Source: a bacterium (GTDB taxonomy: Bacteria; Patescibacteriota; Minisyncoccia; Minisyncoccales; CG1-02-41-26). Taken from it: a stretch of 64,000 nt of DNA. Position numbers and translations under genes: made by a program. The notes under the pieces were generated by a model. It was not told the origin of the DNA, ran no database searches, and saw nothing but the letters and a program-made list of their open reading frames with translations. This document shows positions 4,073 through 43,474 of this stretch, one piece after another (the first letter of the stretch is position 1; every line of letters begins with the position of its first letter). The DNA lies in the NCBI GenBank assembly GCA_030603395.1, contig JAUVXX010000005.1, positions 885-64,884 on the forward strand, read 5' to 3'.

Positions 4073-4101
4073 TTGTAATTTTTCAATTTTTGAGTTAGAA
4101 T
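4073..4101 (+). promoter_or_regulatory. putative promoter of tRNA-Glu (and downstream GT2)
   Basis: TTGTAA (4073-4078), 17 nt, TAGAAT (4096-4101), 9 nt before tRNA 5-prime end. Confidence 0.45.
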
Positions 4102-4110
4102 TTATTGAGC

Positions 4111-4183
4111 GGCCCTGTCGTCTAGTGGTTTAGGACGTCGCGCTTTCAATGCGAAAACACGGGTTCGATTCCCGTCAGGGCCA
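4111..4183 (+). tRNA. tRNA-Glu (anticodon UUC)
   Basis: hand-folded cloverleaf: acceptor GGCCCTG/CAGGGCC, anticodon loop CTTTCAA, T arm ACGGG-TTCGATT-CCCGT; no encoded CCA. Confidence 0.9.
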
Positions 4184-4192
4184 CTTTTAAAT

Positions 4193-5743
4193 ATGGAGAA
4201 TTATCTCGAGATTAGTCGGGCTTCCGACCTCCCCAAACTAAGGGAGAGGTGGCTCTATCGTTTTTTTGAAATTTTGCCGGGAGCTCTAAGCTTAACTACC
4301 CTAAGTTTTGCCCTGCTTTTTTCCTGGTTAAAGCCGGTCTGGGTGGCTTTTTTTATTATCCCCCTGTGTCTTTATTGGGCCTTAAAAGTTATCTATCTTT
4401 CTCTGTATCAAGTTACCTGTTTTAGGCGAATGAAAAAAAATCTTAAGGTTGACTGGCAAAAAAAGCTTGAAGATGTTCGCCATTGGCAGAATATTTACCA
4501 ATTAGTTATCCTGCCCATGTACCAGGAGGATTGGGGGGTGGTTAAAGAAACCTTAGAGTCCCTCAAAGATTCAATTTATCCCAAAGACAGAATGATAATA
4601 GTTTTAGCTCAAGAAGAAAGAGCAGGGGAGAAAGTAAGAGAGATTGCCGAAGTTGCTGGCAAAGAATATGGAGATTGTTTTTACCGATTTTTAACCACTT
4701 GCCATCCTAAAGACATTGAAGGGGAAGCCATCGGTAAAGGGTCAAATGTGGCGTTTGCTGGCAAAGAAGCAAAGAAACTAATTGATGAGCTCAAAATCCC
4801 TTATCAAAACGTTATCATTTCAAACTTTGACATTGACACCAAGGTTTCCCCCCAATATTTTCTTTGTTTAACTTATCACTACTTAACCTCAGAAAATCGG
4901 TTAAGGAGCAGCTTCCAGCCCATTCCGGTCTACCACAACAATATCTGGCAAGCCCCGGCTTTCAGCAGGGTTGTGGCTACCAGCAATACTTTCTGGCAAA
5001 TGATGCAGCAGGAAAGACCCGAGCAGGCGGTCACTTACTCTTCCCATTCCATGCCCTTTAAAACTTTTCTGGAGGTGGGTTATCCGCACAATTTAGTGCC
5101 TGACGACTCCCGAATATTCTGGAAATCCTTTTTTAAATATGATGGGGATTACCGAGTTGTCCCCCTATACTATCCGTTGTCTATGGACGTGGTAGACGCT
5201 TCAAGCTTTTTTAAAACTTTTGTCAATCAGTACAAACAACAGAGAAGATGGGCTTGGGGCTGCACCGAAATCCCTTATTTGCTTTTTGGTTTTTTGAAAA
5301 ACAAAAAAATCCCTTTGAGAAAAAGGATTTTCCACTCTTTTATTGCCCTTGAGGGATTTTGGTCTTGGGCTTGTGCCTCTATTTTAATTTTGTTTCTGGG
5401 TTGGCTGCCTTTACTTTTAGGCGGGGAAGAATTTAACGTCACCATACTTGCCTACAACCTTCCCAGATTAACCGGCAGAATTATGACCTTTGCCATGTTT
5501 GGTATGGTTTGCGCCATCATCCTCAACATACTTCATTTACCCCCTCGGCCCAAGGGAATTTCTCCCCTGAAAAACCTTTCCATGATTTTTCAATGGCTGT
5601 TTCTACCCCCGGTTTTAATAATCTTTGGCTCCCTGCCAGCATTAGACGCCCAGGTTCGCTTAATGTTCGGCAAATACATGGAATTTTGGAATACCCCCAA
5701 AGTCCGGAAAAACCTCAAAGAAACAGAGGACAGTCCTCTGTAA
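4193..5743 (+). CDS. membrane-embedded family 2 glycosyltransferase (processive, cellulose/chitin-synthase-like)
   Basis: 516-aa ORF; N- and C-terminal TM segments; central GT-A region; QQRRWAWG (QxxRW) motif. Confidence 0.75.
   Translation: MENYLEISRASDLPKLRERWLYRFFEILPGALSLTTLSFALLFSWLKPVWVAFFIIPLCLYWALKVIYLSLYQVTCFRRMKKNLKVDWQKKLEDVRHWQNIYQLVILPMYQEDWGVVKETLESLKDSIYPKDRMIIVLAQEERAGEKVREIAEVAGKEYGDCFYRFLTTCHPKDIEGEAIGKGSNVAFAGKEAKKLIDELKIPYQNVIISNFDIDTKVSPQYFLCLTYHYLTSENRLRSSFQPIPVYHNNIWQAPAFSRVVATSNTFWQMMQQERPEQAVTYSSHSMPFKTFLEVGYPHNLVPDDSRIFWKSFFKYDGDYRVVPLYYPLSMDVVDASSFFKTFVNQYKQQRRWAWGCTEIPYLLFGFLKNKKIPLRKRIFHSFIALEGFWSWACASILILFLGWLPLLLGGEEFNVTILAYNLPRLTGRIMTFAMFGMVCAIILNILHLPPRPKGISPLKNLSMIFQWLFLPPVLIIFGSLPALDAQVRLMFGKYMEFWNTPKVRKNLKETEDSPL
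5723..5741. terminator. palindromic hairpin between convergent GT2 and recG
   Basis: acagaggac-a-gtcctctgt; overlaps last GT2 codons; same palindrome as 9878-9898 in opposite orientation. Confidence 0.5.
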
Positions 5744-9905: not shown

Positions 9906-9977
9906 TGCCCTCGAGAGGAGTCGAACCTCTATCACAAACTCCGCAAGTTCGCATTCTGTCCATTGAACTACGAGGGC
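9906..9977 (-). tRNA. tRNA-Arg (anticodon GCG)
   Basis: hand fold of reverse complement: acceptor GCCCTCG/CGAGGGC, anticodon stem CGAAC/GTTTG, loop TTGCGGA, T arm AGAGG-TTCGACT-CCTCT. Confidence 0.8.
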
Positions 9978-10056: not shown

Positions 10057-10143
10057 GGAGGAGTCGGATAACGGTATTCCAGTGGCTTGCTAAGCCATCG
10101 CCGTGTAAAAAGCGGCTTGTGAGTTCGAATCTCACCTCCTCCG
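10057..10143 (+). tRNA. tRNA-Ser (anticodon GCU), long variable arm
   Basis: acceptor GGAGGAG/CTCCTCC, anticodon loop TTGCTAA, variable arm CGCCGTGTAAAAAGCGGCT, T loop TTCGAAT. Confidence 0.88.
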
Positions 10144-10151
10144 CTTTTTTA

Positions 10152-10233
10152 GGAGGGGTCGGATAATGGTATTCCACTAGTTTTGAAAACTAGCACCCGA
10201 AAGGGTATGCGAGTTCGAATCTCGCCCCCTCCG
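10152..10233 (+). tRNA. tRNA-Ser (anticodon UGA), long variable arm
   Basis: acceptor GGAGGGG/CCCCTCC, anticodon stem CTAGT/ACTAG, loop TTTGAAA, T loop TTCGAAT. Confidence 0.88.
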
Positions 10234-21799: not shown

Positions 21800-24915
<3,116 letters not shown>

Positions 24916-37944: not shown

Positions 37945-38283
37945 TCATTTAAAATCTATTCTGAACTCAAAGCCACGTTTTTTAAAGCCCAATTTTTCAT
38001 AAAAATTATGAACTTCTGGTCGAGTAAAACGACTGGTACAAATTAACTTATAACAATTTGCTTTCTTTGCTTCTTCAATTAAAACTTTCATAATCTTTGT
38101 GCCATAACCCTTGCCTTGCTTCTCTTCCCTAACAAAAACGTCTTCAATCAAGCCAAAAGGTTCTTTGTGTAAATCGTTGTTTAAAATATAGAGTCGGGCC
38201 CTGGCCACTTCCTGGTTGTTTTCCAAAATTAAAAACTTTAAGCCTTTTCCAGAAATTTTTTTAATTTTTATCTCTTCTCTCAT
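37945..38283 (-). CDS. GNAT-family N-acetyltransferase
   Basis: 112-aa ORF; acetyl-CoA motif QGKGYGTKIM. Confidence 0.75.
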   Translation of the reverse strand: MREEIKIKKISGKGLKFLILENNQEVARARLYILNNDLHKEPFGLIEDVFVREEKQGKGYGTKIMKVLIEEAKKANCYKLICTSRFTRPEVHNFYEKLGFKKRGFEFRIDFK

Positions 38284-38286
38284 AAT

Positions 38287-40086
38287 TTATTCTACGGTAA
38301 CAGATTTTGCCAAATTGCGGGGTCTATCCGGATCAATATTTTTTAAGTCAGCAATGTAGTAAGCTAAAAGTTGCAAAGGAACAACATTCAAGATTGGAGA
38401 TAACAATTCATTCGTTTCCGGAATTTTAATAATAAAATCGCTAAGCTCTTCAATTTTGGAATCTTCTTTTGAAATAACAGTAATTATCCTTCCTTTTCTT
38501 GCTTTAACTTCCTCAATATTGCTTAAAATTTTGTTGTAAGTTTGATCTCTGGTAGCTACAAAAACAACTGGCATATCTTTATCAATCAAAGCGATAGGAC
38601 CGTGTTTCATTTCGGCTGCCGGATAACCCTCAGCGTGAATATAAGAGATTTCTTTAAGTTTTAAAGCACCTTCTAAAGCTACTGGGAAATTAATTCCTCT
38701 TCCAAGATAAAGAAAATTTTTGTTTTCGGTAAATCCCTCCGCCACCGCCTTTATTTTATCAGCTTCTTTTAAAATCAATTGAATTTTCTTGGAAATATTT
38801 TTGAGCTCTTCTAAAATTTCTTTGTCGGGACTGATTCCCTTTTCCTGCTGAAAATACAAAGCCAATAAAGTTAAGGCGGTGAGCTGGCAGGTGAACGCCT
38901 TAGTTGAAGCCACTCCTATTTCGGGTCCGGCGTGTAAAAATATTCCAGAATCCACTTCTCTTGAAACGGTTGAACCAACAACGTTTACAATTCCCAAAGT
39001 TTTAGCTCTCTTTAACTCAGCTTCTTTTAAAGCCCCTAAAGTGTCAGCTGTTTCTCCTGATTGGGAAATTGTAATTAGTAAATCTTGAGAGGCAACGAGA
39101 GGGTTTCTGTATCTAAACTCTGAAGCATAATCCACTTCTACCGGAATTTTGGTTAGTTTTTCAATTATATACTTGCCAACTAAACAAGCATGCCAGCTTG
39201 TACCGCAAGCGATTAAGACAATTCTTTTAATTGAGTTTGGGTCAAGGTTAAGAGATAATTTTATTTTCTTTTCTTTAATCCTTCCCCTTAAAGTATTTTC
39301 TAGGGCTTGCGGCTGTTCAAATATCTCTTTAAGCATAAAGTGCTTATATCCTTTCTTTTCTATCTGGCCGGCTGTCCATTTTATCTCCTCAATTTCTTTC
39401 TCAATTTCTTTGCCGTCTAAATTTTTAACAGAAAAGCTATTGGCGGTAACCGTTGCCAACTCGTTATCCTGGAGATAGACTACTTTTCTCGTTTGGTCCA
39501 AGAGGGCTGCGGCATCAGAAGCAACAAACATTTCATTACTGCCTTTGCCAATTATTAAAGGCGAGCCTTTTCTGACAACCACTATTTTGGGCTCCTTAGC
39601 ATGAATTATCGCTAAGCCAAAAGCTCCCTCTAAAAGTTTTAAAGCCCGCATAACTGCCCTTTCTAAATCGCCTTGGTAAAATTTTTCTATCAAGTGGGCA
39701 ATAATTTCGGAGTCAGTTGCTGAAACTATTTTATGACCCTCTTTTTCTAAAATATCTTTTAATGCTTGGTAATTTTCAATTATGCCATTGTGAACTATAG
39801 CTATCTCTCCCTTGCAATCCAGATGAGGATGAGCATTTATTTTCGAGGGAGCGCCGTGGGTTGCCCAGCGGGTTTGCGCTATGCCAATATTTCCCTCGAG
39901 GTTTTTAAATTCCAGATTTTTCTTAAGTCCAGAAATCCTGCCCTTTACTTTCAGATTTTTCAGCCGCTGATTCTGAATGGTGCAAATACCAGCTGAGTCA
40001 TAGCCGCGATACTCAAGCCGCTCCAGTCCTTTTATTAAAGTAGGAATGCTATTTTTATTGCCGATGTAGCCGATTATTCCGCACAT
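38287..40086 (-). CDS. glmS: glutamine--fructose-6-phosphate aminotransferase
   Basis: 599-aa ORF; MCGIIGY N-terminal nucleophile, two SIS domains, C-terminal ...KSVTVE. Confidence 0.95.
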   Translation of the reverse strand: MCGIIGYIGNKNSIPTLIKGLERLEYRGYDSAGICTIQNQRLKNLKVKGRISGLKKNLEFKNLEGNIGIAQTRWATHGAPSKINAHPHLDCKGEIAIVHNGIIENYQALKDILEKEGHKIVSATDSEIIAHLIEKFYQGDLERAVMRALKLLEGAFGLAIIHAKEPKIVVVRKGSPLIIGKGSNEMFVASDAAALLDQTRKVVYLQDNELATVTANSFSVKNLDGKEIEKEIEEIKWTAGQIEKKGYKHFMLKEIFEQPQALENTLRGRIKEKKIKLSLNLDPNSIKRIVLIACGTSWHACLVGKYIIEKLTKIPVEVDYASEFRYRNPLVASQDLLITISQSGETADTLGALKEAELKRAKTLGIVNVVGSTVSREVDSGIFLHAGPEIGVASTKAFTCQLTALTLLALYFQQEKGISPDKEILEELKNISKKIQLILKEADKIKAVAEGFTENKNFLYLGRGINFPVALEGALKLKEISYIHAEGYPAAEMKHGPIALIDKDMPVVFVATRDQTYNKILSNIEEVKARKGRIITVISKEDSKIEELSDFIIKIPETNELLSPILNVVPLQLLAYYIADLKNIDPDRPRNLAKSVTVE

Positions 40087-40120
40087 AATTTTTTAGACGA
40101 CCTGCAATCATTAGTGATTT

Positions 40121-40150
40121 AAAATGGGTTTACTTTAGTAAACCCATTTT
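40121..40150 (-). terminator. 13-bp perfect hairpin overlapping the trpS stop codon (possible attenuating terminator before glmS)
   Basis: aaaatgggtttac-ttta-gtaaacccatttt. Confidence 0.35.
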
Positions 40151-41110
40151 CTTTCGCACTTTTTTCATTGTTTCCTGGGCGATGATTTGGGCTCTTTTTC
40201 TGCCCTCCTCCAGGATTTTTTCCAAAAGAGTTTGACGAAGTTCCAGCTCTTTTTTCTTTCTCCGGAAGGGCTCAAGTTTTTCAATTAATAATTGAGACAA
40301 TTTTTCTTTGAAGGTTTGATAACCCTTACCTTCAAATTCTTTTTCAATATCAGTGGTTGAAATACCAGAGAACAAACTATAAATGGTCAAAAGGTTTGAG
40401 ATACCTGGCTTTTGAGAGACGTCATATTTAATTTCTTTTCCCGGGTCGGTTACCGCTGTCATTATTTTCTTTCTGATAGCATCAGGTTTGTCAAGCAACT
40501 CAATACATCCTTGGGGGTTATCAGTTTTTGACATTTTTTTCTCTGGGTTTTGGAGGGACATAATTTTCGCTCCTGTTTTTGGGAGCAAAACCTCAGGTTC
40601 CTTGAAGGTCTTGCCAAATTTTTTATTGAAACGTCGAGCGATTTCTCTGGCTAATTCAACATGTTGTTTTTGGTCTTTTCCTACCGGAACAAGGTCTGTC
40701 CCGTAGAGTAAAATATCAGCCGCCATTAAAATTGGGTAGTTCAAAAGCCCGGCATTGACATCTCTTTTGTGCTTTACTGACTTTTCTTTAAACTGGGTCA
40801 TTCTTTGGAGGTCGCCAATCGGGGTAACGGTTGACAGAAGCCAAGACAGTTCGGTATGTTCTTTTATTTGAGATTGGACAAAGAAAATACATTTTTCAGG
40901 ATTCAAGCCAGCGGCTAAATAAACCTTAGTGACCTCCATTATATTTTTTTGTAATTCTTGCGGCAGGTAGGGAGTGGTCATAGCATGGAGGTCGACAATG
41001 CTAAAAACACACTCATTTTTTTCCTGGAGCGCAATCCAATTTTTTATAGCTCCCAGATAATTGCCTATATGAATTTCACCGGTTGGTCGAATACCACTAA
41101 ATATTCGCAT
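40130..41110 (-). CDS. trpS: tryptophanyl-tRNA synthetase
   Basis: 326-aa ORF; GIRPTGEIHIGNYLG (HIGH region) and KMSKT. Confidence 0.93.
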   Translation of the reverse strand: MRIFSGIRPTGEIHIGNYLGAIKNWIALQEKNECVFSIVDLHAMTTPYLPQELQKNIMEVTKVYLAAGLNPEKCIFFVQSQIKEHTELSWLLSTVTPIGDLQRMTQFKEKSVKHKRDVNAGLLNYPILMAADILLYGTDLVPVGKDQKQHVELAREIARRFNKKFGKTFKEPEVLLPKTGAKIMSLQNPEKKMSKTDNPQGCIELLDKPDAIRKKIMTAVTDPGKEIKYDVSQKPGISNLLTIYSLFSGISTTDIEKEFEGKGYQTFKEKLSQLLIEKLEPFRRKKKELELRQTLLEKILEEGRKRAQIIAQETMKKVRKKMGLLK

Positions 41111-41115
41111 AGTTT

Positions 41116-42795
41116 TTAAACTTCTATAACGACGGGGAGAATCATCGGCCTTCTTTTTGTTTTGGAGAAAAGAAATTGGCCAATCTTATTTCTGAGCTCG
41201 TCTTTAACGTAAGACCAGTTAAGGGCTCCCCCTGAGCCAGCGGCTCTGTTAACTATTGCTATCACTCGTTTTCTGGTTTCTTTTAAAAGTTCCTTTGATT
41301 CTCTTAAATAGACGAACCCTCTTGATATTATATCAGGAGAACCTCTTACTTTTCCAGTTTGTCTGTCAACCAGAGCGACAATGACAAACATACCATCCTG
41401 GGATAAAACCTGGCGGTCCCGCAAGACCACCTCTCCGACATCCCCAATACCCAAACCATCAACCATCACATAATTTGAAGGCACTTTTTCCTTTTCCAGG
41501 GAAATTCTTTGGGGGGTTAACTTTACCACCTGGCCATTTCCAGCAACTAAAATATTTTCTTGTCTTATTCCTTCCTCTTCGGCTAACTCGGCATGCTTGA
41601 CCAGCATTGAATAGTATCCATAAATAGGCAGAAAGAATTTTGGTTTCATAATTTGTATCATCCGAGACAGTTCTTCTTGTTTGGCGTGGCCCGAAGCATG
41701 GATATCCATCATCCGGTAGTGAAAAACTTTGGCTCCCTGGCGGTGGAATTCGTCTTTGAGAATCTGAACCGTTCTTTCGTTGCCAGGAACCACCGAAGAG
41801 GAAAAGATAACAGTATCCTCTTTTTTAAGATGGATAAATTTATGCTCGCGATTGGCAATTCTCATAAAAACAGCACGTCCCTCTCCCTGAGCCCCGGTAC
41901 AAATAACGGTTATTTTTGAATCAGGAAACTTAGAAATATCTTTAGTTTTTATAAAAGTTCCTTTTTGGACTTTAATTTTTTTTAGGTTTTGAGCAATCTC
42001 AACGTTAGTTTTCATGCTGTAACCTTCAATGGCTACCTTTCTGTTATATTTTTCTGAAAGGATAATCAACTGTTGGATTCGGTTAATCATAGAGGAAAAA
42101 GAGGCAGCAATAATTCTACCTTTTACTTTCTTGAAGATTTCATCCAGGTTTTGGAAAATTGTTTTTTCAGAAAGCGAATGACCTTCTTCTTCAGCGCCGG
42201 TGGACTCAGACATCAAAAGCAAAATACCTCTTTGGCCGAGCTTCCTTAATTTTTCAAAATCGGTAGGTAATTCGTTAACTGGTGATTGGTCAAATTTAAA
42301 ATCGGAGGTGTGTAAAACATTACCAACCGGGGTTTGGATAAACAAACCAAGATTGTCCGGAATATTATGATTTTGTCTGAAAAATTCAATTTGAAATGGT
42401 CCTAGTTTAATACGAGAGCCATCTTTTACTTCTTCTATGTCAAGTTTGGGTTGATTGGCAAAATCTTCCTGTCTTTTCAAAATAATCCCTTTGGTTAATA
42501 GAGAAGCATACATGGGTACAGAACCAATTCTGGGAATGATGTAGGGGATAGCTCCAATATGGTCGTAATGACCGTGGGTCAGCACTACTCCCAGGATATT
42601 TTTTTCCTTGCCTTTGAGATAGGAAATATTGGGGATGATGCAATCAATGCCGGGCATATTTTCTCCGGGAAAACCAAGGCCCATATCAATAATTAAAATC
42701 TTCCTTTCGTATTCAAGGAGTTTCATGTTGAGTCCTACTTCTCCCTGGCCGCCCAGGGGAATTATGCGAAGATTTGGTTGTTGAGTTTTTTTCAT
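41116..42795 (-). CDS. rnj: ribonuclease J
   Basis: 559-aa ORF; metallo-beta-lactamase THGHYDHIG, beta-CASP and C-terminal domains. Confidence 0.92.
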   Translation of the reverse strand: MKKTQQPNLRIIPLGGQGEVGLNMKLLEYERKILIIDMGLGFPGENMPGIDCIIPNISYLKGKEKNILGVVLTHGHYDHIGAIPYIIPRIGSVPMYASLLTKGIILKRQEDFANQPKLDIEEVKDGSRIKLGPFQIEFFRQNHNIPDNLGLFIQTPVGNVLHTSDFKFDQSPVNELPTDFEKLRKLGQRGILLLMSESTGAEEEGHSLSEKTIFQNLDEIFKKVKGRIIAASFSSMINRIQQLIILSEKYNRKVAIEGYSMKTNVEIAQNLKKIKVQKGTFIKTKDISKFPDSKITVICTGAQGEGRAVFMRIANREHKFIHLKKEDTVIFSSSVVPGNERTVQILKDEFHRQGAKVFHYRMMDIHASGHAKQEELSRMIQIMKPKFFLPIYGYYSMLVKHAELAEEEGIRQENILVAGNGQVVKLTPQRISLEKEKVPSNYVMVDGLGIGDVGEVVLRDRQVLSQDGMFVIVALVDRQTGKVRGSPDIISRGFVYLRESKELLKETRKRVIAIVNRAAGSGGALNWSYVKDELRNKIGQFLFSKTKRRPMILPVVIEV

Positions 42796-42880
42796 GGTGC
42801 GGGCAGGAGGATTTGCACCCCCACAGGATTTCTCCCACTAGCTCCTGAAGCTAGCGCGTCTGCTGTTTCGCCATGCCCGC
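42795..42880 (-). tRNA. tRNA-Leu (anticodon CAG) with encoded CCA; atypical D and T loops
   Basis: acceptor GCGGGCA/TGCCCGC, anticodon stem CTAGC/GCTAG, loop TTCAGGA, long variable arm; D loop lacks GG and T loop is TGCAAAT; 3-prime ACCA ends at 42795. Confidence 0.78.
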
Positions 42881-42886
42881 CTTTTT

Positions 42887-43474
42887 TTACTCGCCCTTCA
42901 AAAAATCTAAATTTTTTGGTATTTTCTTTAAAGGTTTTTCAAATCTCAACTTCGGTACGTTTTTATAATTTCCATTCTTCAACCAGCCGGATTTGGTGAA
43001 ATAATAACAAGCTCCCCCCAATTTTTCAAATAAATCATAGCGAGATTGGCATTTTTCAGCCACCCAATTTGCCAGCTTTAAAGTTTTCTTTGAGGGATTT
43101 ATGGTCAGATGACCACAGTACGGAGGAATTACTGCTACCTCTCCCTTACTTGCTCTTATCGCATAAACATCTTTTATCTTGTTTCCTTCTCTCCTTTGCA
43201 TTAAAAAGATTGCCGTTCCCTCCAAAACAATATAAATTTCCCCGAACTTTCCCAAATGCTCGTGTCCCTTTGTTTTAACGAATTCTTTTCCCAGCATTTG
43301 AGAGGGAATGATGGTAACGTCGTATCTTAAACCATCTTTCTTCTTTAACCCACGATACATGTAATAGAGTTCAAGATTGGGAGCTTTTTTTGCCCATTTT
43401 CTGTCGTAAAGAACTTCTCTCATGTCATCCAAATAGCGGACATCGGGTTTTTTACTCTTCAAATTTATTTCCAT
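42887..43474 (-). CDS. cupin-type (archaeal-type) glucose-6-phosphate isomerase
   Basis: TKGHEH...GEIYIVLEG...PPYCGH metal-ligand pattern and overall resemblance to Pyrococcus-type cPGI; ATG 43474 preferred over 43498. Confidence 0.75.
   Translation of the reverse strand: MEINLKSKKPDVRYLDDMREVLYDRKWAKKAPNLELYYMYRGLKKKDGLRYDVTIIPSQMLGKEFVKTKGHEHLGKFGEIYIVLEGTAIFLMQRREGNKIKDVYAIRASKGEVAVIPPYCGHLTINPSKKTLKLANWVAEKCQSRYDLFEKLGGACYYFTKSGWLKNGNYKNVPKLRFEKPLKKIPKNLDFLKGE

Follow-up and report, generated by a model that had tools for sequence, protein, structure and literature searches.

The gene for RNase J (rnj) in a Patescibacteria genome begins two nucleotides after the discriminator base of a leucine tRNA gene. 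This arrangement is probably explained by endonucleolytic excision of the embedded tRNA, which would release a near-leaderless rnj mRNA from an operon comprising a glucose-6-phosphate isomerase (GPI) gene, tRNA-Leu, rnj, trpS and glmS. The locus lies on the minus strand of a 64,000-nucleotide stretch of contig JAUVXX010000005.1 (assembly GCA_030603395.1), referred to here as the window; its features are collected in Table 1. Because tRNA-Glu and an unrelated open reading frame (ORF) in the window keep the same type of junction, the abutment is general beyond rnj. On comparison with relatives, it is a lineage-wide habit in the manner of mitochondrial tRNA punctuation, with the rnj junction as one instance. 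The pattern is well supported as comparative anatomy, and its consequences at the RNA level are inferred.

Read 5' to 3', the minus strand gives ...GGGGGTGCAAATCCTCCTGCCCGC-A-CC-ATGAAAAAAACT..., in which CC separates the discriminator A from the ATG of rnj. The fuller order is GAG-TAA-AAAAAG-[GCGGGCA...TGCCCGC-A]-CC-ATG-AAA-AAA-ACT. A preliminary description, made from the letters of the window, had stated that the tRNA 3' end and CC run straight into the rnj start codon, and this is accurate to the base. It had also argued that no room is left for a 5' untranslated region (UTR) or a Shine-Dalgarno (SD) sequence. The 2-nucleotide (nt) gap is real, but the SD part of the argument is weak, since an SD-like core (GGAG, GAGG or AGGA at -18 to -7) precedes only about 5 of the 54 long ORFs in the window, whose upstream regions are A/T-rich. 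The peculiarity of rnj is that the ~20 nt ahead of its ATG form a G+C-rich tRNA stem, whereas open A/T-rich sequence is found elsewhere.

The tRNA is called by both predictors that were run. ARAGORN reports tRNA-Leu(CAG) at 42795..42880(-), with CCA counted in, and Rfam RF00005 matches 42798..42880 at 48.2 bits (gathering score 29), which is the lowest score among the six tRNAs of the window. The variable arm has 15 nt. RNAalifold analysis of 67 distinct orthologue sequences found compensatory double changes in 21 of the 25 helix pairs, which rules out a pseudo-tRNA or a tRNA-mimic leader. The CAG anticodon is invariant. The discriminator A73, a leucine identity element in bacteria, is present in all 71 orthologues including the window, where CUG makes up 12.5% of the leucine codons. 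On this comparative evidence, tRNA-Leu(CAG) is a functional tRNA under selection, and the tRNA-Leu named in the preliminary description is real.

That description had also pointed to a D loop without GG and to the T loop TGCAAAT; both are real, and they are linked through a coupled swap at positions 18 and 55. In the window tRNA-Leu, G19 and C56 of the canonical elbow are kept, and A18 and G55 stand in place of G18 and U55. Normally, G18 contacts the "universally conserved" pseudouridine 55 (PMC4810234, PMC7912444). The orthologues comprise 61 with G18/U55, six with A18/G55 and none with a mixed combination (Fisher p ~1e-8, uncorrected for phylogeny). The carriers of A18:G55 are the window and loci L001, L006, L028, L056 and L058. 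Read across the orthologues, these unusual loops reflect compensation within a tertiary pair, G18:U55 being exchanged for A18:G55, rather than decay or a regulatory tRNA-like element. No description of G55 or of the G18:U55 to A18:G55 swap was found in the literature. The swap occurs in a subset of tRNA-Leu(CAG) genes with GCGGGCA-type acceptor stems, and the other five tRNAs of the window are canonical.

The rnj product has complete RNase J domains in Pfam (PF22505, E = 1.2e-41; PF17770; PF12706; PF07521; PF00753), the names matched being RNase_J_b_CASP, RNase_J_C, Lactamase_B and RMMBL, and it contains the HxHxDH motif. Its closest database homologues are 72-90% identical and labelled Nealsonbacteria or Patescibacteria; an exact-sequence database look-up gave no record. 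Between the preceding in-frame stop and the ATG at 42795 there is no ATG, GTG or TTG in the rnj frame, and the next in-frame methionine is residue 24, beyond the conserved IIPLGG. Alternative starts were rejected on these grounds, as none is available upstream and the next methionine would lose IIPLGG. The N-termini of the homologues (M-K/E-K-x-Q..., ~7-12 residues ahead of the conserved (L/I)(R/K)IIPLGG) agree with the start codon named in the preliminary description. In a relative whose RNase J is 85% identical (L002), the N-terminus MKKTQQPNLRIIPLG is the same as that of the window, and the 13-nt A/T-rich spacer before rnj contains an in-frame TAA. Because this N-terminus is shared by a gene with an in-frame stop upstream, the ATG at 42795 is, by comparison, the rnj start.

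The junction was compared across 80 loci whose RNase J is 63-90% identical, each species being represented by one genome; a tRNA was taken as linked when it lay on the same strand and <400 nt upstream of rnj. The synteny proposed for comparison in the preliminary description is indeed shared, with tRNA-Leu(CAG) ahead of rnj in 70 of the 80 related species. Spacers were counted from the discriminator to the rnj start over 71 junctions, comprising the 70 relatives and the window. Their mode is exactly 2 nt (17 of 71); 1 nt occurs in one and 3 nt in three, bringing those of 3 nt or less to 21 of 71. Among the longer spacers, 11 loci fall at 4-15 nt, another 11 at 16-60 nt and 28 at >60 nt; the spacer is never 0 or negative. 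Tight junctions are spread over nearly all clades of the RNase J tree and accompany at least six distinct acceptor-stem sequences. Furthermore, a C[T/C/A]ATG remnant follows the tRNA directly in several long-spacer loci. The scattered tight junctions, the varied acceptor stems and the remnants together are consistent with a junction of long standing that insertions have disrupted repeatedly. Among short database contigs (~1.8 kb), which were checked as possible transcript assemblies and yielded nothing on RNA ends, L081 begins within the tRNA T arm and L082 has 76 nt upstream.

An element of ~135 nt that resembles a miniature inverted-repeat transposable element (MITE) lies exactly at the rnj start codon in four species (L020, L025, L032 and L035). 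It has ~14-nt terminal inverted repeats (CCCCGTTAGAAGTC), a TGAAA target duplication, a strong internal hairpin and a TATAAT-like box, and the new GTG start for rnj is composed of the terminal G of the element and the duplicated TGAAA. Since these four species tolerate the insertion between tRNA and rnj, the tight junction is dispensable. Further copies of the MITE-like element occur elsewhere within the same loci. A perfect 31-nt palindrome, ACCCCGTTAGAAAT-ACG-ATTTCTAACGGGGT, is present in the window at 22338-22368 (+), inside the coding ORF 21800-23827, and the terminal repeats of the relatives' element recur in its arms.

The second pair consists of tRNA-Glu(UUC) and an ORF at 4193 that is unrelated to rnj. 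It was compared in 80 metagenome loci (L083-L162) with homologues of this ORF, 78 of which were usable. A tRNA-Glu gene lies <400 nt upstream of the ORF homologue in 67 of these 78. The 55 distinct junctions have spacers of 1 nt ("C-ATG") in 26 cases and 2 nt in six, and 33 are of 3 nt or less. In addition, a different inserted ORF (MHP...) can adjoin tRNA-Glu at 1-3 nt instead. In one locus (L151, 1440-1497), tRNA-Glu and the ORF downstream of it have between them a leftover tRNA 3' half (T arm and acceptor strand, GGGTTCAAATCCCGGTGGGGCCG), which may stem from an earlier partial duplication at this junction.

The preliminary description regarded a CCA end that shares its A with the ATG of rnj as a feature of the locus. 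This was not sustained by the comparison: the other five window tRNAs have C74 followed by T or A, with no CCA, the nearest relative (L001, RNase J 90% identical) reads A-CT-ATG, and CCA is found in 20 of the 71 tRNA-Leu orthologues, next to CTA in 27 and CAA in 10 at positions 74-76. The seventeen 2-nt junctions are divided between CT (10) and CC (7). C74 itself is present in 68 of the 71 tRNA-Leu orthologues and 46 of the 55 tRNA-Glu junctions, and C74, with the frequent A76, may be a determinant for 3' processing. The shared CCA is most likely incidental and not a functional shared 3' end; it would be a by-product of a pyrimidine at 75 standing between the conserved C74 and the first base of the start codon. 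In the loci with spacers >3 nt, positions 74-76 are C-N-A in 40 of 50, so A76 is common there too. All six window tRNAs are followed by C at position 74 (4184, 9905, 10144, 10234, 42797 and 56714), although CCA occurs after only one. Two of these, the tRNA-Ser genes (GCU and UGA; 10057-10233, +), stand in tandem 8 nt apart and are followed by a terminator-like hairpin, with a divergent tRNA-Arg(GCG) beside the pair at 9906-9977.

Ahead of the tRNA, 40 of 63 loci have a same-strand ORF whose end lies 0-10 nt from tRNA-Leu, with exact abutment in 13. In nine loci (L004, L014, L019, L025, L040, L044, L056, L065 and L068), the upstream stop codon falls within the tRNA gene, 1-43 nt in, and there RNase P cleavage would strip that upstream mRNA of its stop codon. 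The identity of the gene upstream of tRNA-Leu varies among relatives; thus, the conserved unit is tRNA-Leu then rnj, embedded in operons. In the window, the trpS, glmS and GNAT genes (37945..41110) probably belong to the same operon as rnj. Translational coupling from the upstream ORF was rejected on anatomy, as its stop is 92 nt ahead of the ATG and a folded tRNA lies between.

No promoter-like hexamer pair is present within 42795-42880, which includes the tRNA-Leu gene, and no terminator was found between tRNA-Leu and rnj. The tRNA-rnj co-transcript of the preliminary description is borne out as an inference by these two negatives, which argue strongly for co-transcription as the only reasonable reading. 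Candidate promoter-like sites lie in the upstream ORF, and the number of such sites in the region is no higher than in shuffled controls. The tRNA is predicted to fold as a separate domain, leaving the AUG and the next ~35 A-rich nt unpaired, and the minimum free energy of the first 36 nt of rnj in the window is 0.0 kcal/mol. The start codon is ATG in 21 of 21 tight junctions versus 34 of 39 long-spacer loci, a difference that is suggestive with numbers too few for significance. No difference in the A-richness of the first rnj codons was seen between the tight-junction and long-spacer classes.

Table 1. Features of the tRNA-Leu–rnj locus, of the tRNA-Glu pair and of the MITE-like element in relatives. 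Positions are those of the window unless a locus is named.
Feature	Position	Strand	Source or remark
tRNA-Leu(CAG), class II, position 1 to discriminator A73	42798..42880	-	ARAGORN, Rfam RF00005; anticodon 42847-42845
Positions 74-76 (C, C, A)	42795..42797	-	2-nt spacer and A76 = A of rnj ATG
D loop AAACAGCAGA	42859..42868 (42868-42859)	-	without GG; A 42864 at the G18 position, G 42863 = G19
T loop TGCAAAT	42811..42817 (42817-42811)	-	G 42816 in place of near-universal U55
rnj, RNase J, 559 aa	41116..42795	-	start ATG 42795-42793
Spacer AAAAAG, 6 nt, from upstream ORF stop to tRNA position 1	42881..42886	-	sequence
Upstream ORF, cupin-type glucose-6-phosphate isomerase, 203 aa	42887..43498	-	Pfam PF06560, E = 1.3e-30
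trpS	40130-41110	-	gap of 5 nt after rnj
glmS	38287-40086	-	gap of 43 nt after trpS
GNAT gene	37945-38283	-	gap of 3 nt after glmS
Candidate promoter-like TTGAGA-17-GAAAAT, weak	42921..42949	-	in 3' end of upstream ORF
Candidate promoter-like TTGAAA-17-TATTAT with upstream TG	43001..43029	-	within upstream ORF
tRNA-Glu(UUC)	4111..4183	+	ARAGORN, Rfam
9-nt spacer CTTTTAAAT	4184-4192	+	between tRNA-Glu and ORF 4193
ORF, 516 aa, weak GT2 match	4193-5743	+	Pfam; unrelated to rnj
Promoter-like TTGTAA-17-TAGAAT	4073..4101	+	ends 9 nt before tRNA-Glu position 1
MITE-like element copies	L020 3862-3997, L025 1563-1701, L032 3782-3917, L035 3858-3995		also in L011, L047

The mechanism considered probable can be set out as a series of steps. 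The organism is a streamlined Nealsonbacteria/Paceibacteria-type Patescibacterium in which tRNA-Leu(CAG) is a working gene inside a protein operon, and a single transcript would carry tRNA-Leu and rnj. RNase P would cut at tRNA position 1, and an RNase Z-type 3' endonuclease would cut at or beside the discriminator. The RNase Z-type cut is proposed because the tRNAs of this genome are without encoded CCA, and pre-tRNAs of this kind are normally cut by RNase Z before CCA is added (PMC4810234). The released rnj mRNA would have its 5' end 0-2 nt before the AUG, since cleavage at position 73 or 74 would yield 5'-P-(C)C-AUG.... This near-leaderless message would then be translated SD-independently, like most genes here, from the AUG and the open A-rich start. 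Reporter experiments in Caulobacter indicate that AUG identity and an open start region determine leaderless initiation, and that each extra 5' nt approximately halves it (PMC8459731). Genomes of the candidate phyla radiation (CPR) are reported to keep YchF, a promoter of leaderless translation (PMC12641178).

Several points weigh against excision with release of a near-leaderless message. Compactness is genome-wide: ~92% of the window is coding, same-strand ORFs are separated by a median of 6 nt and 4-nt overlaps are numerous, so a tight junction alone is no proof of a dedicated mechanism. The CC-ATG trailer of the window mimics CCA, which inhibits RNase Z in Bacillus subtilis and eukaryotes. 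A 2-nt leader would be workable yet sub-optimal, given the halving per nucleotide in Caulobacter. In a survey of ribosome-biogenesis factors, rnj, rnc and pnp were the ribonucleases preserved in CPR, RNase Z being outside the genes surveyed (PMC12641178). Finally, searches of the window and of ~1.07 Mb of relatives' DNA, which represents biased neighbourhoods, found no rnz, cca or rnpA; motifs and tblastn were used for rnz and cca, and the result is uninformative on whole genomes.

The main rival, which is considered unlikely, holds that the tRNA and the mRNA are mutually exclusive fates of the transcript. Exonucleases such as PNPase would mature the tRNA 3' end after a cut inside rnj, destroying that mRNA copy, and rnj would be translated only from the uncleaved chimera, with ribosomes loading SD-independently on the A-rich open region 3' of the tRNA. 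SD-independent initiation is the norm in the window, and the unpaired, A-rich first ~35 nt of rnj would suit such loading. The preservation of rnj, rnc and pnp reported for CPR and the lack of an RNase Z in the sampled DNA (the window and ~1.07 Mb of relatives' neighbourhoods) point the same way, as do the nine loci with the upstream stop inside the tRNA, in which the ORF is readable to its stop only on uncleaved RNA. However, the mRNA channel of the ribosome would have to accommodate a G+C-rich acceptor helix of 7 bp lying 2 nt from the AUG, and the upstream regions of other genes are A/T-rich and open. The sharp 1-2 nt modes and the invariant ATG fit a 5'-terminal AUG better, and CCA-less tRNA genes normally imply endonucleolytic 3' processing and CCA addition.

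Autoregulation of rnj would be an added layer on the excision mechanism and not an alternative to it. Here, RNase J would degrade its own 5'-monophosphate, leaderless mRNA when abundant, or would itself cut the junction. RNase J reportedly prefers 5'-monophosphate ends. The tRNA-Leu–rnj pair is kept in most of the species compared though its upstream neighbour changes, and RNase J has 5'-3' exonuclease and endonuclease activities, according to work cited in PMC12641178. The same abutment is nevertheless seen for tRNA-Glu with an unrelated membrane or GT-like ORF and with a third, inserted ORF, half of the species have spacers >15 nt, and in four species a mobile element with its own hairpin and TATAAT-like box splits the tRNA from rnj. 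The rnj-specific feedback loop envisaged in the preliminary description is unsupported, being weakened by the tRNA-Glu pair and the four tolerated insertions, and is considered unlikely. A broader proposal is offered tentatively: Nealsonbacteria/Paceibacteria-type Patescibacteria might regularly make leaderless 5'-monophosphate mRNAs by tRNA punctuation (RNase P plus a 3' endonuclease at 73 or 74), the rnj message thereby becoming a substrate of its own product's exonuclease, as a built-in autoregulation of the lineage's main RNase.

A promoter embedded in the tRNA gene, with transcription starting at the A of the ATG, would instead give a leaderless rnj mRNA derived from a transcription start site (TSS). 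Such mRNAs are common in several bacterial phyla (PMC4007540, PMC3898074). This origin is very improbable for rnj, as no promoter-like hexamer pair lies in 42795-42880, no -10 element is found ~7 nt ahead of the ATG, where the stretch is a G+C-rich stem, and the -12 to -7 sequence, CCTGCC, is acceptor/T-stem sequence constrained by pairing and changing via compensatory substitutions. An annotation artefact (a tRNA pseudogene or remnant, or a true rnj start elsewhere) might be suspected, since the tRNA scores below the other five in Rfam and has non-canonical A18 and G55, but is effectively refuted by the covariation, the invariant CAG, the universal A73, the perfect coupling of A18 with G55, the use of CUG codons, the lack of an upstream in-frame start and an N-terminus shared with orthologues of unambiguous start.

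The same anatomy has left a systematic error in annotation, in which gene callers extend tRNA-abutting ORFs through the tRNA. Among the 120 best database matches listed, 13 RNase J entries are over-extended at the N-terminus through the upstream tRNA (P0008, P0010, P0013, P0015, P0017, P0044, P0047, P0068, P0101, P0102, P0105, P0113 and P0118), because the spacer to the tRNA is missing. The extensions spell translated T arms, such as ...VGSNPT..GT-M, ...LVGSNPTFGT-MKK... and GVQILLPAP-MKK....

The wider interest of excision at these junctions lies in the fact that tRNA punctuation with leaderless mRNAs is regarded as a hallmark of mitochondria, and in this ultra-small-genome bacterial lineage dozens of species retain 1-2-nt junctions in two tRNA-gene pairs that are unrelated to each other. 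The pattern is of interest because it is conserved and general in the lineage. If the excised mRNAs are translated, extreme bacterial streamlining would have converged on an organellar solution. This would provide a natural system for leaderless initiation from 5'-monophosphate ends, and would bear on translation initiation in CPR, with its few SD sequences.

In animal mitochondria, polycistronic transcripts are cut by RNase P and RNase Z to give leaderless mRNAs (PMC3790967, PMC6924987). The resemblance proposed in the preliminary description holds anatomically on both sides of the tRNA: same-strand ORFs flank it at 0 to few nt, the gaps in the window being 6 nt on the upstream and 2 nt on the downstream side and those in relatives 0-10 nt upstream (40/63) and 3 nt or less downstream (21/71). 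As in mitochondria, release of the tRNA would set the mRNA ends and the downstream mRNA would lack a 5' UTR, and in some relatives the upstream stop overlaps the tRNA. Unlike mitochondria, the system belongs to a bacterium, free-living or episymbiotic, whose genome is estimated at roughly 0.6 Mb from the contigs of relatives; punctuation affects only part of its genes, and the tRNAs are full-size canonical cloverleaves. There is also no evidence here of polyadenylation completing stop codons.

Among bacterial mixed tRNA-protein operons, thrU-tyrU-glyT-thrT-tufB of Escherichia coli likewise has tRNA genes co-transcribed with a downstream protein gene and separated from it by tRNA processing. 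Operons of the tufB type, however, keep a spacer of tens to >100 nt with an SD-bearing leader, whereas here a spacer of 1-2 nt, conserved in many species, leaves no leader. Plant mitochondrial t-elements similarly rely on recognition of tRNA shape by RNase P/Z-type enzymes to make mRNA ends (PMC1920247), but these are non-functional tRNA mimics, in contrast to the bona fide decoding tRNA described here. Literature searches turned up no account of leaderless mRNAs generated by processing at tRNA 3' ends, whether for bacteria or for CPR; the differential RNA sequencing papers on P. acnes and S. coelicolor describe leaderless mRNAs that are TSS-derived only. MazF in E. coli offers a precedent for post-transcriptional leaderless mRNAs, as described in PMC3848588. 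The rnj message would resemble the leaderless mRNAs of Actinobacteria, Deinococcus and Caulobacter: its AUG would lie at the 5' end or close to it, the start region is predicted to be unstructured, and no SD precedes it. It would differ from TSS-derived leaderless mRNAs in the lack of a -10 element upstream of rnj, and from both TSS- and MazF-derived ones in a 5' end that comes from tRNA 3' processing, with 0-2 extra nt and presumably a 5' monophosphate.

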